From Escherichia phage OliverMaurmann_Bas86: a DNA stretch of 64,000 nt. The notes under the pieces are model-generated. The model made no database searches. It saw nothing but the letters and a program-made list of their open reading frames with translations, and was not told the origin of the DNA. The position numbers were made by a program, and so were the translations under genes. The stretch lies in the sequence record PQ850622.1; one strand, written 5' to 3'. Below, piece after piece: positions 1 through 59,103 of the stretch. Numbering within the stretch: the first letter of the stretch is position 1; every line of letters starts with the position of its first letter.

Positions 1-1619
1 TTGGTGTAACTCGTACTGGTATCAACTCTGATATCAAACAGTTTACGCAGAAGGTAACTTTCCAGCAACCTGTTACTGTTCCTGATGCTGTAGGTGATTA
101 TGATGCAGTTACACTGAGACAGCTTCGTAACAGTAGTGGAGGTTCTGGTGGTCCTACCATGAGCGGTATCTCCAACTTTGGTATTGGCGATTTCCATCTT
201 CGTGATAGTCGTGCTTTTATCCCAGCTTTTGAAGTTTTGTCTGACGGGCAGCTTCTGAATCGTGCTGACTACCCAGATCTGTGGGCTTATGCACAATTAT
301 TGTCACCTATAGAGGATTCAGAGTGGGTAGATGACATTTACCAACGAGGTAAATACTCTAAAGGAGATGGCTCCACTACTTTCCGTGTTCCAGACCGAAA
401 TGGTATTCAGCTTAACTCCCTTCCGGCGCTTTATGGACGAGGTGATGGTGGAGCTTCGGCTGCTAATGGTCTAATATTTGATGCTGCTGCTCCTAATATT
501 TATGGGGATATTGGTGGTGTTGTTGCTTATGGTCAGACTGGAGCTATCGCCAGAGGGCAGGAAGAAACGGCTCTCGCCCCTCAACCTAGCACTGGTAATG
601 GTGTCTTGAGGGTTAGTTTAAATGCCTCACTAGTCAGTCCTGTTTATGGTCGTTCCACTGATGAAATCCTAACCCGTAACTTTGTAGGCGTTTGGACTAT
701 TCGTGCGCATGGTGGTTTTACTGCTGCTAATACTTCTTGGTCAGTTATTAATAGTGATGCAAACCGTCCTGCTGGTGGAACTCGAGCAACTAGTGGTTCT
801 ATTATTGCTGAATATAAAATTGGTTCAGAAGTAGAGGCTTCTACTACGCTCCAAACTGATGCTTATATCGACGGAGCTTACTATGGGGTTATCAATGTTT
901 ATAATAAAACCAAAGGAGTTACCAAGCAACTATCTTTTGACGATTCTGGAACCCTGAACTCTGATAGATATGCTGCTCGGTTTGGGACATTGATGACTTG
1001 GAGCGAAACAGGAAGTCGCAGAGGTACTTTTTCTATAGACAACCAAGGGATAGGGACTAACTTCTCCTTCAACTCCATACTAAGTGCCTCTCAAGCAACT
1101 AGTGGGGGGTACAAAACTACCACCCATGTTGGCATGATTCACAACGATACTGGATCTTTTGCTGATTCCTGCTGGCATGTTGCAGGGGATGAAGACAACA
1201 AATACGGTTGTCGTTTAACCCTTAGACCAAGCAGGAATGAGATTTATTACTACACTTGGCAGCCCGGCTCCACTGGAACTTACACTCTTGCTATGAATCC
1301 TGTGTCAGATGAAAGGTTGAAACACAACATTCAAGACCTCTCGCCTGATGAAGCAATTCGTGCGATTAAAGGTTTGGACTTCAAATCGTTTGTGTACAAC
1401 AATGATAATCAAGGAAGAACTCGTCGTGGTATCATTGCACAGCAGGCAGAGAAAGTTGAACCTCTTTATGTTAAAACTCGTAAATTCCATGACAACGATG
1501 GGGTAGAGCAGGAACAGAAAGAGTTGGATGCAACTCCAATGCTTTTAGATACCATGCAGGTTGTTCAAGATCTGCTGAAGCGTATTGAAGTTCTAGAAGC
1601 GAAGTTAGCAGAGAAGTGA
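1..1619 (+). CDS. Tail fiber/tailspike protein, 5' end outside window
   Basis: The frame of ORF 159..1619 stays open back to nt 3 (GVTRTGINSDIK..DAVTLRQL). Tail-collar-like motif ADYPDLWAY..GDGSTTFRVPDRNG. C-terminal SDERLKHNI..GIIAQQAEKV plus coiled coil resembles the S74 intramolecular chaperone domain. Confidence 0.75.
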   Translation, partial: GVTRTGINSDIKQFTQKVTFQQPVTVPDAVGDYDAVTLRQLRNSSGGSGGPTMSGISNFGIGDFHLRDSRAFIPAFEVLSDGQLLNRADYPDLWAYAQLLSPIEDSEWVDDIYQRGKYSKGDGSTTFRVPDRNGIQLNSLPALYGRGDGGASAANGLIFDAAAPNIYGDIGGVVAYGQTGAIARGQEETALAPQPSTGNGVLRVSLNASLVSPVYGRSTDEILTRNFVGVWTIRAHGGFTAANTSWSVINSDANRPAGGTRATSGSIIAEYKIGSEVEASTTLQTDAYIDGAYYGVINVYNKTKGVTKQLSFDDSGTLNSDRYAARFGTLMTWSETGSRRGTFSIDNQGIGTNFSFNSILSASQATSGGYKTTTHVGMIHNDTGSFADSCWHVAGDEDNKYGCRLTLRPSRNEIYYYTWQPGSTGTYTLAMNPVSDERLKHNIQDLSPDEAIRAIKGLDFKSFVYNNDNQGRTRRGIIAQQAEKVEPLYVKTRKFHDNDGVEQEQKELDATPMLLDTMQVVQDLLKRIEVLEAKLAEK

Positions 1620-1622
1620 GAT

Positions 1623-1642
1623 AAGCCCCTTCGGGGGCTTTT
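1623..1642 (+). terminator. Rho-independent terminator
   Basis: AAGCCCC-ttcg-GGGGCTT followed by a T run, just after the stop at 1619. Confidence 0.8.
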
Positions 1643-1708
1643 AGGAGTGAAACTGGTGAATAAGTAATGAAACTACTATATCCAAAAGGAAAATGAAAGG
1701 AGAAGAAA

Positions 1709-1927
1709 ATGAAAATGATGAAACAGGTAACTTATGGTCTAGCTTGCTTAGGGACAGGTTTTGTGATTTCCACAGCAGTACCTGTAAATGCAGTAGGCTC
1801 TCATTCTATTATAGAAGCTCCTGTAGAGAAGCTTAGTTCTCAATGTAAACAAAGGACCATTCAAAATAATTTGGTTGTTATTTGCCCAGACGCTCAATCT
1901 TCAGCTCTGAGAAAAATTCTTCCTTAA
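1709..1927 (+). CDS. Small protein with N-terminal hydrophobic segment (secreted protein or single-TMD holin candidate)
   Basis: RBS aaaggag. MKMMKQ then VTYGLACLGTGFVISTAVPVNAV. Sits directly upstream of the endolysin. Confidence 0.5.
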   Translation: MKMMKQVTYGLACLGTGFVISTAVPVNAVGSHSIIEAPVEKLSSQCKQRTIQNNLVVICPDAQSSALRKILP

Positions 1928-1960
1928 TTGACCTAAAATAACAACAAAAGGAGGTCAAAG

Positions 1961-2452
1961 ATGGACGCTATCGCATTGCCGCCTGTACAGATGAGCCTAA
2001 GTCCGGCTGGTATGGAGTTTATCATGAAGCATGAAGGCATGAGAACTAAAGCCTATAAAGACTCCGCTGGAATCTGGACTATATGTGTAGGGGCTACGCG
2101 CGATATGAATGGGTATCCAGTAAGACAAGGATTAACGTATTCTATAGAGGATTGTCTAGCTCTGCTAGATAGAGACACACAAGACTCTGTTCGTGCTACT
2201 CAGAAAAACATAAGAGTTCCTATGCTAGCTCATGAATTTGATGCTGTCACTTCTTTCAACTTTAATGTTGGTGGTGGTGCTTTGTCAGCTTCAAAACTTA
2301 GGAAAGTGATCAACGGAGATGTGAAGGGTGATGTTTACTCAGAGTTCTTACGTTGGGATAAGATAACTGTTAAAGGTGTAAAGCAGCGGAGTCCGGGACT
2401 TCACAATCGCAGGGTTGCAGAAGCAAATCTATACACTACAGGAAAATATTAA
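1961..2452 (+). CDS. Endolysin, GH24 (T4/lambda-type lysozyme)
   Basis: HEGMRTKAYKDSAGIWTICVGAT matches the E-x8-D-x5-T lysozyme catalytic motif. RBS aaaggagg. Confidence 0.85.
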   Translation: MDAIALPPVQMSLSPAGMEFIMKHEGMRTKAYKDSAGIWTICVGATRDMNGYPVRQGLTYSIEDCLALLDRDTQDSVRATQKNIRVPMLAHEFDAVTSFNFNVGGGALSASKLRKVINGDVKGDVYSEFLRWDKITVKGVKQRSPGLHNRRVAEANLYTTGKY

Positions 2453-2464
2453 TGGAGGTGCCTT

Positions 2465-3268
2465 TTGGCTATCGAAACAACTGCGGTAGTTACTACCGAT
2501 TTAAACCCCCTATACCCACGGGACAGGGACTACCTTTATGAAGGGGCTGCCCAGATACGACTGGTCAAACAAGTCTTAATTAACACTTTCCCTAACATCA
2601 CAGAGCCGGTTCAACTTGACTCAGATTCTTTCAACATCCTAGCAAACAAGGTCTCTTTTACTGGAGACTCTATGGACGTTGGTGGTTTGATGATTAAGAA
2701 CCTAACTCCGGGAACTGGTGATAAAGATGCTGTAACCAAAGGTCAGATGGAAGCTTTCATGTTGAATTGGATGCAAAATAAACTATACCGTATTGGTTCT
2801 TATTACATCACTGAGGAAGATATTAATCCGGGAGACTCCAGCTCTCTTGGCTTCGGTTCTTGGGCTAAAGTAACTGGTGTTGTTATGGGTACTGGTGTTG
2901 TTAACCCTGACGGTTCTGTTCCTAACGCCCAGCGTGTGGAATTCCAAGCAGGTGGTACAGGAGGTCGTGTATTCAACACAATCCGTGCTGATAATATGCC
3001 TCTTACTACAATCAATGGTTCTAGTTTCCAAGTCAGTTCTTATTCCCACTCGCACAACATCACGATGGGTCGAGGTGATGCTAGTGGTCACAATAGCAGC
3101 CCTAATTGGTATAGTCCGGGTGGTGGTTACACTCAGGTAACTGACACCAACACTCACTCCCACTCAATCACAGGTTCTGTTAGTTTTGGGCGTGATGATG
3201 TATCAAGACAACCTATCAACACTTTGCCGCCTTTCAGAGCAGCGCATATTTGGAGACGTATTAGCTAA
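2465..3268 (+). CDS. Tail fiber-like protein with C-terminal HxH repeats
   Basis: TTG start behind ggaggtg. DAVTKGQMEAF fiber N-motif. HSHSHNIT..THSHSITG repeats resemble metal-binding fiber tips. Confidence 0.6.
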   Translation: MAIETTAVVTTDLNPLYPRDRDYLYEGAAQIRLVKQVLINTFPNITEPVQLDSDSFNILANKVSFTGDSMDVGGLMIKNLTPGTGDKDAVTKGQMEAFMLNWMQNKLYRIGSYYITEEDINPGDSSSLGFGSWAKVTGVVMGTGVVNPDGSVPNAQRVEFQAGGTGGRVFNTIRADNMPLTTINGSSFQVSSYSHSHNITMGRGDASGHNSSPNWYSPGGGYTQVTDTNTHSHSITGSVSFGRDDVSRQPINTLPPFRAAHIWRRIS

Positions 3269-3277
3269 GGAGGAATC

Positions 3278-6200
3278 ATGGCGCTTTATCCAATAAAATC
3301 TTTAGGGGCTGTAGGGGTTATTGCTGACCAAGCTCCAACTGATTTAGCACCTAATGCTTTCACTAATGCTATCAATGCCCGCTTTGTAGAGCAAAGAGTT
3401 TTTAAGACGGGGGGCAATGCCCCTCTTTCTTATGTAGAAGAAGATAAAGAGATTACACCACTCTCTTTTATCTCAATGCCTTTTGACTACTACAGTGCAG
3501 GTAATAGCTTTCTGGTTGTTGGTACAGACAAAAAGCTATATAAGTTGACAGATGAAAGCTTGACAGATATCAGCCGTAAGGTTGCCACTGTCACAAAAAG
3601 AGCTTCTGCTTCTATTAAGATTTATCCGGTTGTTTCTCAGATTGTTCCTAAAGAGACTTCCATTTCAATGAATTTCAACCAAACTAAAACTTTGGAAGTT
3701 TCTGTTCTTCCGGAAGATGCTAATAATACATCTCTGGTTTGGGAAGTCAGTAATTCCTCTTATGGTAAGGTAGAGGTTGATCCTAGTAATCCTAAAATTG
3801 CAACTCTAACTTCTTATGAAAGAGAGGGGAATTTAGTAGTCACTGTATCAACAGCCGATGAATCTATCAGCGCTCAGATTGCAGTAAACATTATAGATGG
3901 TGATTCTGGTATCTTCTTAAGCCAAGACACAATAACCGTTCGTAAAGGTGGTAACACTACAATAACTGCTGTTACTGGAAAAACCCCTGTAACTTGGACT
4001 TCTAGTAACAATTCAATCCTCTCCATCACACCGAACACTAACACACTAACGGCATCCTTATTTGCAAATGGAGAAGGCAGTGTTACTGTAACAGCGGATA
4101 ATGGCGTGAAGAGTGCTTCGTGCCAAGTTAATGTTATACCACAGATTGACAGCATCACTCTAAGTCAGACTGATGTCCAAATGAGCAGAGGTACTCAGTA
4201 CGTCCTGACTGCTACAGTTAATCCTTCAGATGCTCCTAATAAGACGATAACTTGGACTTCCTCTAACCCTAATATTGCTACAGTTTCCGGAAACAGTACA
4301 GAAGCAGTAATCACTGGACTACTTGCTGGGTTTACTGAAATCACAGCTGTTACCCAAGAAGGAAATAGAGCAGCAACTTGTACGGTAAGGGTAGACCTAG
4401 GTGGAAGAATGATGCGAACTTCTGCAATGTCTTTTTCGGAACCTATGGTTAAGGAGGTACAGTCAGAGGTTGACAATACCTATGCCCCTGCTGAAACAGA
4501 AGAGGTTTTGTATTTTGTAAGTGAGCCTTCTGGTATAGACACTTCAGGTATGTACGAAGGGAACAACTTCTACGACTACTCAAACGTCAATGACATGGAA
4601 GGTTTTGCACGGGCTGCACTTTTGGCTAACGATGCTCCTTTACAGTCGCTCTCTTTAGATATTATTAATGCATCCCTTGATGTTGGAGAAGACATTGTAA
4701 TCACAGCTAATGCTTTACCTGAGGGAGAGTATTTCTACCAGTGGACAGTAGACAAAGCAGGTTATGTTTCAACTACATCTACTACTGGAAAATCTCTAAA
4801 ACTGACAGCTATTCGTAAAGGTGAGATCAAAGTTACTTGTACTGCTAGTCAAATGACTCAGAAAGATTATGATGCTTTTGACGACTATCCTTGGTATCAC
4901 ACCATAATCTCTAACTGTGCAGTGGCTACCACTCATTATGAAACACCACAGGTCAAAGAGTTTGAATCTGAGTATTTCGTAGATCTTCCGGGATGGGGTG
5001 AGCAAACAGTCGTTGATAATGATGGCAATCCTTCTGTTAAGAAATTTAACTGGAAGTGTGAGCGTATTCGTGCATTCAACAACAGACTTTTTGCTCTGAA
5101 TATGAGGGAATCTAATGCATCTGGTGTAACTACTCACTACCCTCTAAGACTTCGGTGGTCGAATTTCGCTAACGAAAACAAAGCTCCATCTCTTTGGGAT
5201 GATTATGCTTATGATCGTTTAACAACTTCAGACCTATCAGCAAACATTGTTGGTCAAACTGAGGCTTTGGAAAATGGGTACGCTGGGTATATAGATTTAG
5301 CAGATTCTAACGGAAGTTTGATTGATGTACTTCCTCTGAAAGATTACCTTTTTGTTTACACGGAGTTCGAAACCTACATTGGTTCTCCAACCAATAACAC
5401 ATATCAGCCCCTTATGTTTAAGAAGCTGTTTAATGACTCTGGCATACTTGCTCCTGAGTGTGCAGTTGAAGTCGAAGGTGGACACTTCGTAGTAACTCAA
5501 AATGATGTGATCTTACATAATGGTGCATCTAAAAAATCTATAGCATCTAACCGAGTCAAGAATCTTCTCATTAATGAGATCTGTCTAGTAAACCCTCTAG
5601 CTACTAGAGTTCACCTACACCAAGACAAGAAAGAGGTTTGGGTTTTATATGTAGGTCCGGGAGAGCCTAAAGAGAGTTTTGCTTGTAATAAAGCCGCTGT
5701 TTGGAATTATGAGTTTGACACTTGGTCTTTCCGTACAATACCATATGCTCAGTGTATTGGGTTAGTCGATCCACCAGTTCTTGAGAGAGGTCCAATCTGG
5801 GCAGATTTTCAAGAGATCACTTGGGATGATCCCTCTATTAACCAATTAGTCTGGAGAAAGGATGCTAATAACTTCCGTCAAAGGATTACAATAGTTGGCT
5901 CTTTCCTGAAGGGATTCTATCAAGTGGATGTTGGTGCTCTGGACTACATCTATGATAGAACCAATGATAGGATTATAGAAAAACCTTTAGAAATGAGGCT
6001 AGAAAGAACTGGTATTGATTTTGATAATGTCACTAATGAGTGGAATCAAAAACATATTAATAGATTTAGACCTCAAGTTACTGGTACAGGTACTTATACT
6101 TTTGAAGTCGGTGGAAGTCAATTCTCAAACGAGTATGGACACAATCACTCAACTAAAGAGTTTAGGGTAGGCTCAGATCGTCATGTATCCGTGAGACTGA

Positions 6201-30699: not shown

Positions 30700-30834
30700 C
30701 TATTCATCTGAATTGTGACTACAACAATACTCACAAACTCCGCAGCAAGGACAAATCTCTACTGTAGGGTCGTAAGCATCATCAACTGTCATACCGCACC
30801 GTGTACAGAAAACATCATCATCGTTTTCTTCCAA
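30700..30834 (-). CDS. Possible 44-aa Cys-rich ORF (TTG start)
   Basis: ..FCTRCG..ICPCCGVCEYCC.. No ATG start. Weak call. Confidence 0.25.
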   Translation of the reverse strand: MEENDDDVFCTRCGMTVDDAYDPTVEICPCCGVCEYCCSHNSDE

Positions 30835-30836
30835 AA

Positions 30837-31484
30837 TTAACTCTCCAAAGTTTTCTTCAAAGCTGCCCATGAGATTGGATAGAGTTTAGCCATCTCTTCA
30901 TCTAATGACTGAGCAAATAGTCGAACTTCATATTGAGCATGGGATGATAGTCGTTGACGACACAATTCAAACCAGCCATACAAGCTACCAGTCCAGTACC
31001 AAGTAGTTACCATACCTTGAGGTAAAACAAATCTAGCTTGTTCAGGAGCTACGAACTTAATCAATTCGTCATAACTAGCAAGAGATGCCTCGTACGCAGA
31101 GTTAAACAAAGCTAAAGCTTTTGCCTCTTCCTCCCCTTCAAGAAGTATTCCAGAACCAGAATGTAGATCATCTGGACGGGAGAAGATTTCTTTAGGTATG
31201 AAAATATCCACTGCTCCATCTTTATATCTACGACTCATCTCGTTCCAAGAAAAACCAACTTGATGCTTCTGTAACTGTCGTGCAATTGCTATAGGAGCTT
31301 CGCATCTGAAGCTCGCTTGTGGGTGACGAAAAGGACTTACGTGTCGTTCCCGAGCTAGAAAATTTATTAGACGAGTGTCACTTTCTTTTAATTCTTCCCT
31401 TTCTACCCCCATAGTTACACGAGCAGCATTGACTACTGTAAGATCTGAACCGAAGTTATCAATTAATGAAGCTTTGATTGTCAT
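30837..31484 (-). CDS. thyX: ThyX-like flavin-dependent thymidylate synthase homolog with divergent signature
   Basis: ThyX-like ..RHVSPFRHP..QLQKHQVGFSWNEMSRRY. The canonical RHR-x7-S motif reads KHQ here. Confidence 0.8.
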   Translation of the reverse strand: MTIKASLIDNFGSDLTVVNAARVTMGVEREELKESDTRLINFLARERHVSPFRHPQASFRCEAPIAIARQLQKHQVGFSWNEMSRRYKDGAVDIFIPKEIFSRPDDLHSGSGILLEGEEEAKALALFNSAYEASLASYDELIKFVAPEQARFVLPQGMVTTWYWTGSLYGWFELCRQRLSSHAQYEVRLFAQSLDEEMAKLYPISWAALKKTLES

Positions 31485-31950
31485 TTATGTAAGTCTCCTT
31501 GACTTTATTATATTCCCTAGAGGCTTCTTCTATGGTTGAGAAGAGTCCTATGTGCTTAGATTTAAATACCGCCCGGTAAGCAATAGAGCCACTTTTCCTT
31601 CTATGGACAGTCACTCCAATCACTCCGGTTGATAAATTATTACTCTGAGCTACTTTGTTTAGGCCATTTCCTGATCTAGTAGTCCCCCTAAGATTCTCTC
31701 TTTTGTTGTTTATCCTGTTGCGGTCTATGTGATCTACTTCTTCAGGAAGCAATCCAGTGTCCCACCAGTAAGCAAGTCGATGAGCGTAGTATCTAGCACC
31801 TTTATAAACGATTCTCAAATACCCATTGGTATTTACAGAACCAGCTATAGACCCTTTGTGTCCTTTTCCATAAGTTTTAACCCATCGGAAATCTCCAGTC
31901 AAAGGGTCGTAATCAAGAGCTTCTTTTATTGACGGGTCAATATCATTCAT
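31459..31950 (-). CDS. HNH_3 + AP2-domain homing endonuclease
   Basis: YDPLTGDFRW..GYLRIVYKGARYYAHRLAYWW..VDHIDRNRINN, then GVTVHRR..YRAVF (AP2-like). Overlaps the thyX start by 26 nt. Confidence 0.8.
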   Translation of the reverse strand: MNDIDPSIKEALDYDPLTGDFRWVKTYGKGHKGSIAGSVNTNGYLRIVYKGARYYAHRLAYWWDTGLLPEEVDHIDRNRINNKRENLRGTTRSGNGLNKVAQSNNLSTGVIGVTVHRRKSGSIAYRAVFKSKHIGLFSTIEEASREYNKVKETYINDNQSFIN

Positions 31951-31965
31951 CCGTGAATACCCTTA

Positions 31966-32241
31966 TTATTTATTGCCTAGAGCTGTATCCAAAAATGCTT
32001 TCAGGTTTGCTTCAGTCTGCATACCGGAGAGGCTGTAGTGTGCACCACTGTTACGGTCAGGCACAACGAAAGCAGGGATACTTCGTACACCATACTTAAC
32101 AGCTTGTTCACGACCATCACCTTCAAGGATGTTAATCTCTTCCACTTCTACATCAAACTCCTTAACAACCTTCTCAAAGGTAGGAGCCATTGCTTTACAT
32201 GGAGCACATGAATTACTATAAAATTTAATTACTTTACTCAT
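31966..32241 (-). CDS. Thioredoxin
   Basis: FYSNSCAPCKAM contains the CxxC active site. ATG at 32241 behind aagga is preferred over the track start. Confidence 0.8.
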   Translation of the reverse strand: MSKVIKFYSNSCAPCKAMAPTFEKVVKEFDVEVEEINILEGDGREQAVKYGVRSIPAFVVPDRNSGAHYSLSGMQTEANLKAFLDTALGNK

Positions 32242-32242
32242 T

Positions 32243-32419
32243 CTATTCCTTGTTAATAAACAGATTGATATGGCGCTGAGTAGCAGGGACAACAATAAAA
32301 GATTTATACTGCCCTTTTGCTAAATCATGAGCAATCTTCTTTGTCTGACCAAGACCCATTACACAGCCACTAACAATAATGGCATGTGCTTGTAATTCTT
32401 CAGGGAGGTTTAATTTCAC
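32243..32419 (-). CDS. Possible 58-aa ORF (GTG start)
   Basis: aaggaatccaaaga precedes the GTG. Fills the gap between two genes. Confidence 0.35.
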   Translation of the reverse strand: MKLNLPEELQAHAIIVSGCVMGLGQTKKIAHDLAKGQYKSFIVVPATQRHINLFINKE

Positions 32420-32431
32420 TCTTTGGATTCC

Positions 32432-32617
32432 TTACAGCATAACAAGAACGATAATAAGAGGTAGTGTTATAGCAAAATGTACCAGAACAACACTACCTAG
32501 CTTGATAGCTTTAACATCCTCTTCTGCTGGGTTTTCTTTAATTGCTAAATTTCGAGCTTTATAGATAATAGTACCAACTATTAACGACCACACGGCCCAC
32601 ACAACCAATGAAATCAT
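32432..32617 (-). CDS. Small two-TMD membrane protein (paralog 1)
   Basis: MISLVVWAVWSLIVGTIIY..VLVHFAITLPLIIVLV. Confidence 0.5.
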   Translation of the reverse strand: MISLVVWAVWSLIVGTIIYKARNLAIKENPAEEDVKAIKLGSVVLVHFAITLPLIIVLVML

Positions 32618-32626
32618 ATCAAACCC

Positions 32627-32806
32627 TTATGCAGTCAGAAGGTGAAGCAGGAATGGGATAACAACAGCTACGACAACCATGATGGTTGATGCTGTTTGAA
32701 TCTCACCTTTCTTGTCAGGGGTTTCTTCAATAAGCTTACCAGAAGCCCAATAGATACCACCGCCAATAAAGATAGCCCAAATACCCCATACGATTGCTGA
32801 TAACAT
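32627..32806 (-). CDS. Small two-TMD membrane protein (paralog 2, 59 aa, below track cutoff)
   Basis: MLSAIVWGIWAIFIGGGIYWASGKLIEETPDKKGEIQTASTIMVVVAVVIPFLLHLLTA. RBS aagga. Confidence 0.5.
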   Translation of the reverse strand: MLSAIVWGIWAIFIGGGIYWASGKLIEETPDKKGEIQTASTIMVVVAVVIPFLLHLLTA

Positions 32807-32867
32807 ATATCTATATCCTTATAAATGAGTTCGCCCCACCTCGGGTTAGGAGACAGGGCGGAGGTTT

Positions 32868-33443
32868 TTAGTAAGACACATCACCACTTGAGTGGGACAT
32901 GTTGCTCTTGACGAAGTAACAGAACTTGCCAAGACCTTCATTAATTTCTTGAAGCATACTCTGGTCCACTGGATAGGTGCACAAGTCTGAATCAAACTCA
33001 TCCATCTTCTCAATGATACACATAAGAGTCATGCACATGTCGGAAAGCATACCGTCCATGTCGAGATCAGCGTTACCTTCTCGGAACCAAGCATGGCCTA
33101 AATAATTACTAGCAGTAGCATCCACTTTAACACAATGAAAGCGCATACGCTCTGCTATTCGGTCGCCTGCCTCACGAGCATAATCTTCTAGTTCATCGAA
33201 CATACCATGAACACCTTGGAAACCAGCTCCAGAGACGTTCCAGTGGTAGTTCTTTGCTTTGATGTGTAGAAGTTCAAGGTTAGCTTGCACACCACACAAG
33301 ATGTGTTCTAAGCTGTTACCGCTAATCAGTTTATTCATTCCCTCAAGACGAGAGATAGAAGAGTCAGTAGTAGAGAATGGGTTGCTAGAACCCACTCGTG
33401 TTAGTTCTGGTAAGTCGAAGACATTATTATGCATTAGGTGCAT
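32868..33443 (-). CDS. Dps/ferritin-like protein
   Basis: KAKNYHWNVSGAGFQGVHGMFDELEDYAREAGDRIAERM matches the Dps ferroxidase helix pattern HW-x-x-x-G..F..H..F-[DE]-E..D..AER. Confidence 0.75.
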   Translation of the reverse strand: MHLMHNNVFDLPELTRVGSSNPFSTTDSSISRLEGMNKLISGNSLEHILCGVQANLELLHIKAKNYHWNVSGAGFQGVHGMFDELEDYAREAGDRIAERMRFHCVKVDATASNYLGHAWFREGNADLDMDGMLSDMCMTLMCIIEKMDEFDSDLCTYPVDQSMLQEINEGLGKFCYFVKSNMSHSSGDVSY

Positions 33444-33774
33444 CCCCTTCTAAGTTAGTTGAATTAGCTACATTACGAGCAATGTTATCCATGACCTGCT
33501 GGGTAATAACAATGCAATTCTGTGGGTCTACAGACTTAGAACGCCCCATTTCAGGGTCATAAACCTTAACACGCTTGGCTGTTGAGCCAGTAACTTGCAA
33601 CACTTTGAGAAGATAACCTTGGTTTCCAATAGACCATGCAACAACATCACGATTCTTGATATAACGACCAAGCATATCACGATGATAGAACTGCTGCATA
33701 ACTTTAGCTTTGCTAATCTCTTCAGATGGCGGGGCCACTTTACTCAAATCTAACATAACTCTCTCCTGTTTCAT
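33427..33774 (-). CDS. Hypothetical protein
   Basis: 115-aa ORF downstream of promoter motif 33792-33802. Confidence 0.5.
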   Translation of the reverse strand: MKQERVMLDLSKVAPPSEEISKAKVMQQFYHRDMLGRYIKNRDVVAWSIGNQGYLLKVLQVTGSTAKRVKVYDPEMGRSKSVDPQNCIVITQQVMDNIARNVANSTNLEGDAPNA

Positions 33775-33791
33775 ACAATATTCTTATACTG

Positions 33792-33802
33792 TATATACAT
33801 TT
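33792..33802 (-). promoter_or_regulatory. Candidate phage-sigma promoter AAATGTATATA
   Basis: Lies 18-28 nt upstream of ATG 33774. Contains the 10-bp palindrome TGTATATACA. Confidence 0.5.
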
Positions 33803-33826
33803 GAGAGTTATCATATCTACTACCAA

Positions 33827-34033
33827 CTAGTAGTGGACCTTGCTAGTCAAGGACCCAGCACTGTTATTATCATTTTGAAACCAGCGATGAATCTCCACTT
33901 TTTCAGCGAGTCCTAAAGCTTTTGTAGCTTTCTTAGCAAGACGAGCTTCTTGTCGTGTGTCGAATAATTTAAGACAGTCACCACCGAGATCTTTGTTAGC
34001 CCATTTAACACGAACTGCCCATAATTTAACCAT
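33827..34033 (-). CDS. Hypothetical protein, tandem paralog
   Basis: Shares V-R-V-x-W..TRQEAR..KK..I-H..KVHY-stop with 34033..34248. Confidence 0.5.
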   Translation of the reverse strand: MVKLWAVRVKWANKDLGGDCLKLFDTRQEARLAKKATKALGLAEKVEIHRWFQNDNNSAGSLTSKVHY

Positions 34034-49284: not shown

Positions 49285-49304
49285 ACAACCTCTTCTTTGA
49301 ACTT

Positions 49305-49329
49305 AAAAAAGGACTCTCATAAGAGAGCC
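49305..49329 (-). terminator. Rho-independent terminator
   Basis: Minus strand reads GGCTCTC-ttat-GAGAGTCC followed by TTTTTT. Confidence 0.8.
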
Positions 49330-49392
49330 AAGCTTTAAGGCCAATTAAATAGATATCACCCAATATCTGTGGATAACCTGCTCTTAAAATAT

Positions 49393-49525
49393 TCTATCCG
49401 ACGGATGTTCGAGGATTATTCCTCTCCCTAGCATCGGCCCCATACGGGAAAGATTAAATTAAGATTAGGTTAGTTGAGCCAGAATAGCTCACATAGCCCT
49501 CTGATACTCACGAGGGCTATAGATG
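49393..49525 (-). repeat. Conserved structured non-coding element, copy 1
   Basis: Aligns with 53929-54055. Contains stop-proximal hairpin ATAGCCCTC/GAGGGCTAT (49493-49520) and inner hairpin GAGGA-ttat-TCCTC (49411-24). Confidence 0.6.
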
Positions 49526-49777
49526 TTACTCTGTATCTCCGTCGAAGCGGAGGATTGCTGTCGGAACAGGAATAACTGCCATGTCAATCTCTAAACGGAA
49601 GAGATGACCTGTGCTCAACTGAACTGCTGTTACCGGCTTAGCGATACCAGCAACAGAGGCAGAAGGGATTCGGATAAAGAATTCCCCCGGATATTCAACC
49701 GAACGAAACACATCTCCCGGTGTCATATCTTTTACTTGAACAGTAGGCTCAGGAGGTGTTTTATTGGAAATTTGCAT
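49526..49777 (-). CDS. Small protein, PGDxF paralog family member 1
   Basis: ..DMTPGDVFR..L.TGHLFRL..VIPVP. Confidence 0.55.
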   Translation of the reverse strand: MQISNKTPPEPTVQVKDMTPGDVFRSVEYPGEFFIRIPSASVAGIAKPVTAVQLSTGHLFRLEIDMAVIPVPTAILRFDGDTE

Positions 49778-50037: not shown

Positions 50038-50451
50038 TTAAACAACAAATTGGAACGCTTCGTATCCAAACTTGTATGAGAAGTCATGCTTGAATTTCAC
50101 TACACGACCACGATCACGGAAAGATTTCAGACGACTAATAAAGCCAGCCATCGGCTCAGGGTCAATAGGGCTACGAATCTTCATAGCTACAGAGTGCAGC
50201 TTGAAGCGTTTACCAGTGCTACAGGCCATCATCACATACTCCATACGAGTAGTCCAGATGTTGAGCACCATGCTTGTTTTCTCCGCTGACCAACCAGTCT
50301 TGCGGGCGATTTCTTTATGGACATTAAGCTCCAAAGGAAGAGGGAATTGCTTGTTGAATGAAGCCGGATATAGCTTGACCAGAAGGTCAATGTTTTCTTT
50401 ATACGTTAAGTAAGCCAATTTCTTGCTTACGTTAGGGAATTTCCCAGACAT
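50038..50451 (-). CDS. ProQ/FinO-domain RNA-binding protein candidate
   Basis: LYPASFNKQFPLPLELNVHKEI..SAEKTSMVLNIWTTRMEYV..GKRFKLHS parallels E. coli ProQ FPHCF..RPLKIGIFQDL..LRSALRLYTSSWRYL..GATRVDLDG. Confidence 0.65.
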   Translation of the reverse strand: MSGKFPNVSKKLAYLTYKENIDLLVKLYPASFNKQFPLPLELNVHKEIARKTGWSAEKTSMVLNIWTTRMEYVMMACSTGKRFKLHSVAMKIRSPIDPEPMAGFISRLKSFRDRGRVVKFKHDFSYKFGYEAFQFVV

Positions 50452-50629
50452 TTTTTGAAGCTCCAAAACAGCGCCGAAAAGAGAGGCGTCATAGTAGCTA
50501 AAGGGAGGAGAGAAGAGGGCTTATTTACTTGCCTTTTTCTGTCCGTTAATGTACCAGAGAACTGAGCCATCAGGCTGTCGCTGACCGAAGCCTTTCAGGT
50601 TAACCATTTCTTCTTCAGAGTAGGCACGT

Positions 50630-50893
50630 TTATTCACTGATCTTCTCCACTAAATCCAGAGTTGCCGATTCAAACACAACACCAACTGGCATACTAGGTG
50701 CCATATTACGAACGTATCCACTCTGCATAGACACGGCTCGAGAGTATTCAGAACCGTTAGAGCTTTTGTTTACCTTCATGTAAAGGGTTTGTTCTTTATC
50801 TTCTTTCAGAGTAAAGAAAGAGCCGGGAAGAAGCCCCTGAACAGTCAGAGGGATATCTGCAACATGAGTCTTATTGATAGTAAGAACTGTCAT
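50630..50893 (-). CDS. Small protein, PGDxF paralog family member 2 (divergent)
   Basis: ..GLLPGSFFTL..LYMKV.. Confidence 0.5.
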   Translation of the reverse strand: MTVLTINKTHVADIPLTVQGLLPGSFFTLKEDKEQTLYMKVNKSSNGSEYSRAVSMQSGYVRNMAPSMPVGVVFESATLDLVEKISE

Positions 50894-50896
50894 TGC

Positions 50897-51151
50897 TTAT
50901 TCCTTAATAGTTGCTTCAGCTTTAATAGGAATAACAGCAACATCTTTACGAGGTGCTGTCGCTCGGCCCGTATTAAGACAGGCTACAAGTCTGTGCTCAT
51001 CCGCACCCTTAATACAGAGTCGAGTAGAGAACTCGGTAGACAATAAGATGTACAAATCATCATCTTCACTATTAGGGAACATGAAGCAATCCCCGAGTCG
51101 TAAAGCACTGAGAGGTATTGCATTCTTACCTGCTGGTTTGTTAACTTTCAT
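50897..51151 (-). CDS. Small protein, PGDxF paralog family member 3
   Basis: ..LRLGDCFMF..LYILL..VAVIPI. Confidence 0.5.
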   Translation of the reverse strand: MKVNKPAGKNAIPLSALRLGDCFMFPNSEDDDLYILLSTEFSTRLCIKGADEHRLVACLNTGRATAPRKDVAVIPIKAEATIKE

Positions 51152-51427
51152 TTAACCACCTTTAGTTATGGACCGATTTATGAGAGAACTCTTGGAAGAA
51201 TGCTTTCATAAATAGGGGGAGGGGACGAATCCTCCCATATCCTATTAATTAATATTGCATGTAAGATCTAACAATTCGATGCTGTAGTGGATAGCGTAAA
51301 ACGCTTACCGGCATTAAACCCAGCCCATGAGGGGCTTATGTGAATAAAATGCTCAACATTGAGCGGTTAGTTGATAGGAGATCTGAAGTCCTATCTCAAA
51401 GGACTCTCGTAAGAATCCTTCACGATA

Positions 51428-53608: not shown

Positions 53609-53749
53609 TTATCCACCGTAGAACCAATCACCTTGACGCTTACGGATGTTAGTTGTCAGACGAAGCATGGCAGACTCAATCTTCAGAGCACCATTTGCTA
53701 CTGCATCCATACGTTCAGGACGGTTCATACGTTTGGTTGTCTTCTTCAT
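53609..53749 (-). CDS. Small basic protein (46 aa from ATG 53749)
   Basis: MKKTTKRMNRPERMD.. The upstream part of track ORF 53609..53884 overlaps a hairpin-rich non-coding stretch. Confidence 0.4.
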   Translation of the reverse strand: MKKTTKRMNRPERMDAVANGALKIESAMLRLTTNIRKRQGDWFYGG

Positions 53750-53788
53750 ATCGTTCTCTCTTTGTTGGTGGAGGCAGGTTTGCCAGTT

Positions 53789-53822
53789 AATATAAAGGGA
53801 AGCCCTACACGTTAAGGCTTCC
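53789..53822 (-). terminator. Terminator-like hairpin
   Basis: Minus strand reads GGAAGCC-N11-GGCTTCC followed by CTTTATATT. Confidence 0.45.
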
Positions 53823-53928
53823 GCTTGTACAAACTGTCGAGAACTCTCTACCCCTAGATTGTTCTCTATCCCAAACCGATACATACCCCTACATATCGGA
53901 AAGCTGTTCGAAAATTAACAGGTTTTAG

Positions 53929-54055
53929 TCTATCACCGGATGTTTGAGACAAGTCTCGCCCTAGCGGTGAGCCATATGGCGTTGAGATTATAGTTAATTG
54001 AGGAACACCCTCACATAGCCCTCTGATAGACACAAGGGCTATAAGTCGATGTTAC
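53929..54055 (-). repeat. Conserved structured non-coding element, copy 2
   Basis: Aligns with 49393-49525. Stop-proximal hairpin at 54015-54042. The inner hairpin is GAGAC-aa-GTCTC (53946-57), a compensatory change relative to copy 1. Confidence 0.6.
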
Positions 54056-54286
54056 TTAACCATTGATATGAGTTACTTGAACATCAGGTACAGGGATAAC
54101 TTCATGGTCTTCCTGTAATTGGAACAGTGTCCCCTGACTAAGACCAACCACACGATGCATATCGTTAAGTCTAGTGTCTGTCTTTAGGTAGACATTTTCA
54201 GAGTTAGTTGGTAAACGGAACACATCGCCCGGACGTAACTCACTGAGCTTTTTAGTAACAACTACAGAGAAGAGATTAATTTTCAT
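54056..54286 (-). CDS. Small protein, PGDxF paralog family member 5
   Basis: ..LRPGDVFRL..VYLKT..GTLFQL..VIPVP. Confidence 0.55.
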   Translation of the reverse strand: MKINLFSVVVTKKLSELRPGDVFRLPTNSENVYLKTDTRLNDMHRVVGLSQGTLFQLQEDHEVIPVPDVQVTHING

Positions 54287-55336: not shown

Positions 55337-55389
55337 AAGTAGCTGGGCTGTCGTTATCAGAACTTACTACCCCCTTGTTTTACGGGCAT

Positions 55390-55415
55390 AAAAAAGCCCC
55401 ATCCGAAGACGGGGC
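55390..55415 (-). terminator. Rho-independent terminator (third of three)
   Basis: Minus strand reads GCCCCGTC-ttcg-GATGGGGC followed by TTTTTTAT. Confidence 0.85.
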
Positions 55416-55470
55416 GACCTGAAAGAGTGAACATGACCTCACTCATTTAAGAATCCTCGAAAAGACTCTT

Positions 55471-55494
55471 AAAAAAGCGGCCTCGTTAAAGGCC
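55471..55494 (-). terminator. Rho-independent terminator (second of three)
   Basis: Minus strand reads GGCCT-ttaacg-AGGCC-gc followed by TTTTTT. Confidence 0.65.
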
Positions 55495-55574
55495 CGGTCA
55501 AATGACCATCCAATAGGGGTTGAACCATGCCAATGATTCACAAAGGGAGTTCCCTTTAGGTATCACTAGCTACG

Positions 55575-55596
55575 CAAAAAGCCGCACAAAGGCGGC
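55575..55596 (-). terminator. Rho-independent terminator (first of three)
   Basis: Minus strand reads GCCGC-ctttgt-GCGGC followed by TTTTTG. Confidence 0.65.
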
Positions 55597-55655
55597 AGAC
55601 ACAAAGACGCTCAAGAAGAGCGTCATAGTAGTTGACTACTGGTACAGAAGAGGGC

Positions 55656-57938: not shown

Positions 57939-58650
57939 CGAGGCGGTCTTATCAGGAGTTAACCTTGCCGCCTCCTTATCCGTGATGTTTCATCTGGTAT
58001 CTTTAATTAGTCGCTATAAATAAAGCCGACCTGATAGCGATGATCAATCATCACAATAAGGCAGTGCGTCCGACTCTATTTAATTACTTTATCGTAACCG
58101 TCGGCAATATCGTCTACTTTGCTTTCGCTCCCGCCTATCCTTTTGTACTAACTCTCAATCGCTAACCATCGCCCACTACGGGAGGTTATTGCGAAAGAGT
58201 CATTAGCCGTCTAATGCATTGACGTTTTATATCTTTCAGCAGGTTTACTACATAAACTGATTATGTACGCCATCAATAGTGGCCTCAAATCATTCACATC
58301 GTAAACGTTCACACTAAACCTTATTGTTAAATAGCAATTTGCCACTTTTTAACCATTCACCGCCGCCCCCAATTGGGCGTTAATTCGTCGGATTTGCCTA
58401 CCCTGATAAACTTCTTTCACTGTAGCACCTTGTTAGCGATGGCCGCCGCTACCCTTTAACCGTGGGCGATTAGTTTAGGCCGTTGCGTGTACTCAATGAA
58501 TCCGTTTTATCAGTGGTGACGTTTCCAGTTAAGGGATTGTAAAAACTGTTTACCCTGATAATTTAGGGAGTCTTACGCCGTTTTATCTGGTATGTTTTCC
58601 GATGGTTATTATCATCCAACATATTCAACCGATATAGGAGAATGTTTAAA

Positions 58651-58663
58651 TTGTTAAAGAGCG
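58651..58663 (-). promoter_or_regulatory. rrn-type boxA-like element, copy a (CGCTCTTTAACAA)
   Basis: Minus strand reads CCGCTCTTTAACAATTTAAAC. Hairpin AGTGTG/CACACT (58675-92) lies just upstream on the transcript. Confidence 0.65.
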
Positions 58664-58750
58664 GTAAATCTATCAGTGTGCTTTCTCACACTATGCAACT
58701 GTTAGCCGTTGTTACGCTTTTCTTAAGCGGTGAATTGCTTAAGTGTGCTC

Positions 58751-58779
58751 ATTATGAATCATGCTGTTTTAGCTGTCAA
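58751..58779 (-). promoter_or_regulatory. Sigma70-type promoter P-a
   Basis: TTGACA (58779-74), 17-nt spacer, CATAAT (58756-51). A-rich upstream flank. Confidence 0.65.
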
Positions 58780-58881
58780 CCGCTTTTTTAATCTTTTTCG
58801 TCGTTCCCTTTATTGGGAGGATATATCAATCAGCTATATTTGATTGAAGATTAAGCGGTAAGGCTTAACTCACGATTCATA

Positions 58882-58894
58882 TTTTTAAAGAGCG
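58882..58894 (-). promoter_or_regulatory. rrn-type boxA-like element, copy b (CGCTCTTTAAAAA)
   Basis: One mismatch to copy a. Confidence 0.55.
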
Positions 58895-58917
58895 GTGTTT
58901 CTTACTGCTTGGTGAAC

Positions 58918-58944: not shown

Positions 58945-59016
58945 CTCTTTTTATCATCTTCTTTTATTCTATTCCCTTATCTCGCTTGAATCTATGCGAA
59001 AGGGCAAGATGATAAA

Positions 59017-59029
59017 TTGTTAAAGAGCG
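59017..59029 (-). promoter_or_regulatory. rrn-type boxA-like element, copy c (CGCTCTTTAACAA + TTTATCA)
   Basis: Minus strand reads GGCAC-tta-GTGCC-CCGCTCTTTAACAATTTATCATC. The hairpin at 59031-59043 immediately precedes it. Confidence 0.7.
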
Positions 59030-59075
59030 GGGCACTAAGTGCCGGATGTTTCAAGTCATCGCTGACCGTGTGAAC

Positions 59076-59103
59076 ATCTTATCATAGTGATTCGATGTGT
59101 CAA
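59076..59103 (-). promoter_or_regulatory. Sigma70-type promoter P-c (extended -10)
   Basis: TTGACA (59103-098), 16-nt spacer, TG-a-TAAGAT (59081-76). AAAAATAG lies upstream. Confidence 0.65.

Follow-up and report, generated by a model that had tools for sequence, protein, structure and literature searches.

Gene and protein at the locus

The window analysed here is a 64,000-nucleotide stretch of Escherichia phage OliverMaurmann_Bas86 (sequence record PQ850622.1), a virulent Escherichia coli podophage of the genus Suseptimavirus (Gordonclarkvirinae) that belongs to the phiEco32-like group of C3 morphotype. All genes between 47 and 60 kb of the window lie on the minus strand, and one of them, an open reading frame (ORF) with its ATG at 50451 and its stop codon at 50038-50040, encodes a FinO/ProQ-domain protein of 137 residues. 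This gene, hereafter the FinO gene, is accompanied by four structured non-coding elements, designated IG_A, IG_B, IG_C and IG_D (Table 1). Between 49 and 52 kb, the nucleotide sequence is 96% identical to that of phage AnnaHegner_Bas87 and 92-94% identical to those of MLP3, SU7 and ECBP2.

The protein has a mass of 16 kDa and a pI of 10.0, and its Lys and Arg residues (24 in total) outnumber its Asp and Glu residues (11). The FinO domain covers approximately residues 10 to 110; after it come a C-terminal helix and a tail that are specific to the subfamily (residues 114-137). The four motifs by which the first-pass annotation had recognised the domain are all present, namely, YPASF (residues 28-32), PLEL (39-42), LNIWTTRMEY (63-72) and GKRFKL (80-85). 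A second FinO-like ORF was not found in the window. The product is 100% identical in Bas87 and 96-99% identical in approximately 20 other records, all of which label it "hypothetical protein". Compared to the SU7 orthologue, 11 codons differ synonymously and 3 differ non-synonymously, which indicates that the FinO gene is under purifying selection. Upstream of the start codon there is a GGAG ribosome-binding site (Table 1), and the equivalent position is annotated as such in the SU7 record.

Membership of the FinO/ProQ family

With the single sequence as the query, the Pfam family PF04352 was matched with an E value of 1e-5 and a score of 25.9 bits, and a PF04352 match is also precomputed for the representative of its cluster, which is 98% identical. 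When 1.84 billion cluster representatives were searched exhaustively with phmmer, 43 homologues were obtained; 37 of them were aligned (alignment A1) and served as the basis of both a family profile and an AlphaFold2 model. All of these 37 homologues match PF04352, the best with an E value of 1.7e-20. Compared with solved structures, the A1 family profile matched the N-terminal domain of ProQ (5nb9, 8.9e-15), RocC (5e-12), FinO (1e-9), Lpp1663 (2e-9) and Neisseria NMB1681 (6e-6; 5.7e-6 unrounded). The family profile was needed for this result, as phmmer with the single protein returned nothing relevant among the PDB sequences. A word-indexed search for homologues, also made with the single protein, gave its own cluster alone. 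NCBIfam contains no model for the phage FinO-domain protein.

The AlphaFold2 model has a mean predicted local distance difference test score (pLDDT) of 93.2 and a predicted template modelling score (pTM) of 0.86. Its secondary structure elements follow the order H-H-H-H-E-E-H(-H), as in the FinO-domain fold, a helical bundle whose last helix is preceded by a short beta-hairpin. In a Foldseek search of the PDB, the top 26 matches were all FinO-domain structures with a probability of 1.00, and the next match had an E value of approximately 1. A Pfam scan of the 137-residue protein did not match ProQ_C; in the model, residues 98-137 form two helices that pack against the domain. Based on the profile, family and fold evidence, chance similarity to FinO/ProQ was rejected, and the product of 50038-50451 is confirmed to be a genuine FinO/ProQ-domain protein. 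The first-pass annotation had made this assignment by eye and had proposed a profile search and a structure model; both were carried out, and they gave, respectively, a profile match and structural similarity to FinO/ProQ.

RNA-binding surface and proposed role

Residues were mapped by HMMER alignment, and their roles were taken from the crystal structure of RocC in complex with a terminator (PMC9674577). Tyr72 and Arg82 of the phage protein align with Y70/R80 of ProQ and Y87/R97 of RocC, and they are invariant in 37 of the 37 aligned homologues. In the crystal structure, Y87 and R97 of RocC hold the terminal nucleotide of the RNA, and the mutation R97M causes a loss of affinity of more than 200-fold (PMC9674577). 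The serine of the N-cap is also retained, since Ser55 corresponds to S70 of RocC and S53 of ProQ (Ser or Thr in 27/37), as is Thr67, which corresponds to T82 of RocC and T65 of ProQ. In addition, the subfamily has a signature of its own, W-x-x-R-x-E-Y, whose residues Trp66, Arg69, Glu71 and Tyr72 are present in every one of the 37 sequences.

Based on the results presented above, our preferred reading is that this minimal, single-domain protein may be a fairly general binder of terminator 3' ends that acts mainly on the early transcripts of the phage itself and protects or chaperones RNA; we estimate the probability of this reading at approximately 0.5. By analogy with RocC, ProQ and FinO, the protein would clamp onto an intrinsic-terminator hairpin at its base and would bury the last 3' nucleotide of the U-tail in the Tyr72/Arg82 pocket. 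Consequently, RNA 3' ends would be shielded against exonucleases and polyadenylation, and RNA pairing would perhaps be aided. The main substrates would be the early transcripts of the phage, all of which are predicted to end in this region in strong hairpin-plus-U terminators, including the IG_A terminator of the gene's own cluster.

On the other hand, several observations weigh against terminator 3'-end binding of this kind. The single-sequence score for PF04352 lies 1.1 bits under the gathering threshold of 27. The arginine of the N-cap (R58 in ProQ, R75 in RocC) is replaced by Ser60, and only 5 of the 37 homologues have Arg at this position (Arg or Lys in 6/37); in RocC, the mutation R75D costs more than 100-fold in affinity (PMC9674577). 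The near-universal beta-turn glycine before helix 4 (G52 in RocC, G37 in ProQ) is Asn43 in the phage protein, although Gly is found in 33 of the 37 relatives. With both the N-cap Arg and the beta-turn Gly lost, hairpin recognition may differ or be weaker. The C-terminal helix (residues 114-128), which is conserved in the subfamily and packs on the fold, is absent from the solved domains. Finally, closely related kuraviruses run the same early region without a FinO gene, and the gene is therefore accessory. Asn is able to take the same beta-turn conformation as Gly; Asn43 thus weakens the family match without excluding membership. The invariant Arg69 lies near the N-cap and might compensate for the missing N-cap Arg. 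We read these comparisons as pointing to a real FinO domain in which the pocket for the 3' end is conserved and the surface that contacts the hairpin is modified.

The loss of the N-cap Arg and the beta-turn Gly, the extra C-terminal helix and the lack of the gene in sister genera would also be expected if the FinO-like fold had a degenerated RNA site and bound protein or DNA, or if the gene were a dispensable passenger in a region whose plasticity is indicated by the recent loss of a neighbouring gene in the lineage of the window (see below). We consider such degeneration very improbable, since Tyr72, Arg82, Trp66, Arg69 and Glu71 are invariant across 37 divergent members, the protein is strongly positively charged and its gene is under purifying selection, a pattern that is difficult to account for unless a conserved ligand site exists at the canonical position.

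Structured non-coding elements around the gene

The four non-coding stretches to which the first-pass annotation had drawn attention exist on the minus strand at approximately the coordinates given there, and each of them folds better than shuffled controls (z scores in Table 1). The terminator scan, the folding z scores and the covariation described below bear out the view that the FinO gene lies among structured non-coding elements that end in terminators. Between 46 and 60 kb, 29 terminator-like hairpins were counted, compared with 9.9 +/- 3.1 expected (approximately three-fold), whereas a control region at 26-40 kb contained 13, compared with 8.9 +/- 2.7 expected (approximately 1.5 times).

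Table 1. Features of the FinO gene region and of the linked loci in other phages.
Feature	Position	Strand	Basis or remark
FinO/ProQ-domain coding sequence, 137 residues	50038..50451 (stop codon included)	minus	ORF, profile matches, AlphaFold model, codon comparison
GGAG ribosome-binding site (Shine-Dalgarno)	50461-50464	minus	9 nt 5' of the ATG; sequence reading
Weak hairpin plus a U-run after it (CUACUAUGACGCC...GGCGCUGUUUU)	50465..50497	minus	directly 5' of the FinO gene's ribosome-binding site; repeat family D19
IG_A, conserved multi-hairpin non-coding element at the end of the gene cluster	49285..49525	minus	z -4.0; covariation; approximately 200 nt
IG_A intrinsic terminator, GGCUCUCUUAUGAGAGUCC followed by U6	49312-49329 plus tail	minus	conserved; also annotated in SU7
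IG_B, structured non-coding element upstream of the FinO gene cluster	51152..51427	minus	z -3.9; promoter predicted by the SU7 authors at its 3' end
IG_C, second, diverged copy of the IG_A core	53750..54055 (core 53893-54006)	minus	z -3.4; covariance model match, 72 bits, E=1.4e-15
IG_C terminator-like hairpin of its own	53798-53822	minus	3' of the IG_A-like core
IG_D, tandem array of 4-5 terminator-like hairpins with U-runs	55337..55655	minus	z -5.8
NAD-salvage linkage locus, phage 7-11 (L003)	949-5198
NAD-salvage linkage locus, phiEa21-4 (L011)	30737-33998
NAD-salvage linkage locus, metagenomic contig (L009)	8001-11394

Conservation of IG_A reaches 85% in phiEco32 and 70-77% in a phage from a different family, Salmonella phage 7-11. 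In an alignment of nine sequences, 14 predicted pairs of IG_A are preserved through changes on both sides. Within a core of 24 pairs, 96% of the cells are paired and 8 of the 24 pairs have changed on both sides, compared with 28-48% paired cells and 0-3 such pairs in slid controls. The core common to IG_A and IG_C is approximately 110 nt long. The tail of the IG_A terminator is able to pair with an upstream A-rich run. Tail pairing of this type is also common among terminators generally. It has been seen in most ProQ ligands (PMC12001967).

A scan against Rfam at gathering and permissive thresholds detected only tRNA-Arg, and the elements flanking the FinO gene match no family in it, FinP included. 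IG_A is a candidate for a new phage RNA family, either a 3' untranslated region or a small RNA (sRNA), independent of the FinO gene. It is also a candidate, though unproven, ligand of the FinO-domain protein.

Two further observations concern the boundaries and content of these elements. A mechanically listed ORF of 91 residues (53609-53884, minus strand) overlaps IG_C; the true gene probably encodes 46 residues from the internal ATG at 53749, as SU7 gp114 does, and IG_C accordingly reaches to approximately 53750. The DnaA-box 9-mer TTATCCACA has its only exact copy in the 64-kb window inside IG_A (49368-49376, minus strand). It is conserved in all eight orthologous IG_A copies examined and is not found in the paralogue IG_C. 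It partly overlaps a predicted long-range stem and may therefore be coincidental; it is not part of a cluster of boxes.

N4-like phages of the genus Gamaleyavirus (Schitoviridae, an unrelated family) contain approximately 190 nt of IG_B at 76-80% identity, and IG_B is also conserved in kuraviruses. The Gamaleyavirus copies adjoin tRNA genes and have the same terminal hairpin, GGGAGGAYUCGYCCCCUCCC. This distribution suggests that IG_B may be a horizontally exchanged regulatory or RNA module. As for IG_D, its 5' 235 nt occur in Suseptimavirus records only, and its last terminator (55396-55415) also occurs in kuraviruses. The weak hairpin in front of the FinO gene (Table 1) is a copy, now diverged, of the hairpin with which IG_D begins (55606-55631) and could possibly act as an attenuator or processing site.

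Distribution of the elements and the gene

Of the approximately 104 phage records in which IG_A was found, only some 21 from Suseptimavirus and a few from 7-11-like phages contain a FinO gene as well. In phiEco32 and other kuraviruses, tblastn over the whole records detected no FinO gene. A divergent FinO gene hidden in the early region of phiEco32 was considered and rejected, as a profile search of the six-frame ORFs was negative. When the IG_A core was turned into a covariance model (R1), the model detected IG_A, IG_C and the element of phage 7-11. It gave no match in Erwinia phage phiEa21-4, which has a FinO gene and whose whole genome was searched, and no match within 16.4 kb around the FinO gene of the metagenomic phage contig L009. 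A pattern scan of IMG/VR revealed no IG_A lineage beyond the phiEco32-like and 7-11-like phages. Since IG_A is present without the gene in kuraviruses and the gene is present without IG_A in phiEa21-4, no association could be shown. The first-pass annotation had raised the idea that the elements are the RNA clients of the protein itself, and the comparative data give no support to that view. As non-coding "bookends" around variable gene cassettes, the elements resemble shared modules for regulation or termination more than private clients.

These data bear directly on a narrower function, in which the protein would be a dedicated matchmaker for one or a few specific phage RNA partners (IG_A/IG_C, IG_B or IG_D), each stabilised by it or paired with a target. 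Precedents for such matchmakers are FinO with FinP/traJ, FopA with Inc/repZ, and RocC with RocR. IG_A, which is conserved, covarying and terminator-ended, lies 0.5 kb downstream of the FinO gene, and the gene-carrying Suseptimaviruses have two copies of its core. Moreover, a FinO homologue and an IG_A element occur together in phage 7-11 and its relatives, and FinO proteins of mobile elements typically have a single cognate RNA that is encoded by the same element (PMC9977716). The co-occurrence of the gene and IG_A nevertheless fails in both directions, given the approximately 80 kuravirus-type records that have IG_A without the FinO gene on the one hand and phiEa21-4 and the 16.4 kb of L009 on the other. 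IG_B is also found in N4-like phages, none of which is among the tblastn matches to the FinO protein. The confinement of the 5' 235 nt of IG_D to gene-carrying records, which would favour a matchmaker, is not separable from common descent within one genus. In addition, no antisense partner or target was identified. We regard a dedicated matchmaker as unlikely.

Phage relatives and earlier annotation

The SU7 orthologue (gp092, UniProt A0A8F3C9D8, 98% identical) is already named "ProQ/FinO domain-containing protein" in UniProt, and a fold search of predicted viral structures detected similarly named proteins in Salmonella phage 7-11 (G0X555) and in Aeromonas, Sinorhizobium and Rhizobium phages. 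Homologues with 31-35% identity were found by tblastn in 7-11-like Salmonella phages, phiEa21-4-like Erwinia phages, Aeromonas LAh phages and Shewanella phage KASIA; named members include phiEa21-4 gp115 and KASIA p031. The relatives span 31-98% identity and all come from virulent phages, to which the subfamily is restricted. Some homologues are longer (227-234 residues) and have an extra C-terminal domain of approximately 100 residues. Some depositors use "proQ: RNA chaperone" or "sRNA-binding protein" for these homologues, proQ or RNA chaperone being the label in some Erwinia and Aeromonas phage records, and the PHROGs that contain phage homologues (18901, 35316 and 21591) are all still listed as "unknown function".

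A review of the ProQ/FinO family includes phage-encoded members (PMC9977716), and the KASIA genome paper describes FinO-like proteins as rare in phage genomes (PMC8541194). In the literature, we found no study testing the function of a FinO-domain protein from a virulent phage. The claim of the first-pass annotation that a phage-borne protein of this kind would be unusual was therefore overstated, as phage members are named in UniProt (SU7 and 7-11), by depositors and in these two papers. The identification itself is not very new: the family is known and the protein is labelled in UniProt, yet it is "hypothetical" in GenBank.

Among 72,556 plasmids, tblastn detected nothing at E<=0.01, and recent capture of the gene from a plasmid was rejected on this ground. 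In three other phage lineages, the FinO gene lies within 1-2 genes of a pair encoding ribose-phosphate pyrophosphokinase and nicotinamide phosphoribosyltransferase, which belong to nicotinamide adenine dinucleotide (NAD) salvage (Table 1). This linkage is not seen in the window, where a cluster of small ORFs surrounds the FinO gene.

The gene is accessory and occurs patchily in virulent phages of Enterobacterales, Aeromonas and Shewanella that are unrelated to one another. Such a distribution is as expected for a host-interaction gene, and it would fit a role in host takeover or counter-defence, in which the protein competes with or replaces host ProQ (or plasmid FinO/FopA) on host RNAs. By this route, regulation through sRNAs or 3' untranslated regions might be re-routed, or labile antisense or antitoxin RNAs might be kept after host shut-off and RNA-based abortive infection silenced. 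Small early-region proteins of virulent phages are commonly host-takeover factors. Likewise, as the pocket would recognise a generic terminator 3' end, ligands of host ProQ are plausible substrates, and the adjacency to NAD-salvage genes in 7-11, phiEa21-4 and L009 points in the same direction. No particular host RNA is indicated by the sequence, however, which makes this role purely inferential, and the low identity to E. coli ProQ together with the lack of a plasmid homologue by tblastn argues against a recent capture or mimic. We likewise regard a host-directed role as unlikely.

A specific post-transcriptional device is also quite doubtful in our view. Here, the protein would have a dedicated IG_A/IG_C partner or be a counter-defence factor, and the altered N-cap (Ser60, Arg69) would embody a recognition rule different from that of ProQ, FinO and RocC.

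Comparison with known FinO-domain proteins

Bacterial RNA chaperones fall into three main classes, of which the FinO/ProQ proteins are one. To our knowledge, functional work on FinO/ProQ proteins has so far dealt with chromosomal or plasmid members only. The closest counterpart of the phage protein in overall layout is NMB1681, the minimal ProQ of Neisseria meningitidis (PDB 3mw6), which is likewise a small basic protein with a single FinO domain, short extensions and no accessory domain. The two share the same fold (Foldseek probability 1.00, template modelling score 0.5-0.68) at approximately 20% identity. In contrast to NMB1681, which is chromosomal and a global RNA binder, the phage protein has the additional C-terminal helix and the W-x-x-R-x-E-Y signature and lacks the N-cap Arg.

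ProQ of E. coli and Salmonella (5nb9) gives the best profile match, and its Y70/R80, S53 and T65 correspond to Y72/R82, S55 and T67 of the phage protein. ProQ binds terminator hairpins with U-tails. Unlike the phage protein, it has a linker and a Tudor-like C-terminal domain, and its R58, R62 and G37 are S60, N64 and N43 in the phage protein. RocC of Legionella (7rgu, bound to the RocR terminator) is the best structural match and was the template for the 3'-nucleotide pocket (Y87/R97) and the N-cap (S70). It has one dedicated sRNA partner, a long C-terminal tail and an essential N-cap R75, for which the phage protein has no equivalent. The plasmid proteins FinO (F plasmid, 1dvo; profile match 1e-9) and FopA resemble the phage protein in being FinO domains encoded on mobile elements. 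However, they act on plasmid cis-antisense pairs (FinP/traJ and Inc/repZ, respectively); no such pair was found in the window, and the plus-strand terminator-like sites of the region are weak. Furthermore, the long N-terminal helix of FinO is absent from the phage protein, which has no pairwise similarity to plasmid-encoded proteins.

If the protein does bind RNA 3' ends as proposed, phages would bring their own means of transcript protection or chaperoning, and the protein would be a natural variant of the FinO RNA-binding surface. At present, the correct domain annotation already exists in UniProt and no new kind of system is involved, so the interest is modest; it would grow with proof of a specific RNA partner or of a role directed at the host. 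The small size of the protein, its confident model and the occurrence of an identical protein in Bas87, which infects E. coli and belongs to the public BASEL collection, make it experimentally approachable, and the conserved terminator at the end of the operon could be used as a first test ligand.

Early region and gene cluster

The best sigma70-like promoters are located at the upstream end of the leftward gene block, with TTGACA-17-CATAAT at 58779 and TTGACA-16-TAAGAT with TG at 59103. Beside these strongest promoters, an 18-nt repeat, CCGCUCUUUAACAAUUUA (minus strand), is present in three copies (58647-58664, 58878-58895 and 59013-59030), and these sites probably form a cluster of early promoters. 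The consensus of the phage-sigma promoter of phiEco32 is TAATGTATA (PMC4331800). No exact copy of it is present between 47 and 60 kb, and a phage-sigma (gp36-type) promoter ahead of the FinO gene was rejected for this reason. In phiEco32, early genes are transcribed with sigma70 and shut off later (PMC12276001). Since the leftward block has no exact phage-sigma promoters and has a sigma70-like start at approximately 58.7-59.1 kb, we infer that the FinO gene is expressed early in infection; its temporal class and transcript ends are likewise predicted from sequence.

From its upstream end, the cluster consists of IG_B, genes of 84 and 87 residues, possibly one of 28 residues, the FinO gene, genes of 77 and 83 residues, and IG_A. 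In the SU7 record, a promoter is annotated in IG_B, where the first gene of the cluster begins, and a terminator is annotated in IG_A. The proteins flanking the FinO protein have no Pfam matches, and their PHROG families are all of unknown function.

A family of paralogous proteins of approximately 80 residues recurs in the early region (49526-49777, 50630-50893, 50897-51151 and 54056-54286, all on the minus strand), and its members cross-match PHROGs 7832, 6570, 12612 and 16423 (unknown function). One of these paralogues lies directly 5' of IG_A and another directly 5' of IG_C, an arrangement that suggests duplication of a module made up of a gene and an RNA.

The window lacks SU7 gp093, a predicted membrane protein of 85 residues, and the junction lies at 50633-50648 (minus strand). 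The close relatives listed all have a matching extra stretch of approximately 265 bp in this region, and the site between the 87-residue gene and the FinO gene was confirmed against SU7 only. The two sides of the gp093 gap can each be aligned with one 16-bp stretch, which is consistent with a repeat-mediated deletion. A possible ORF of 28 residues remains at 50524-50610.

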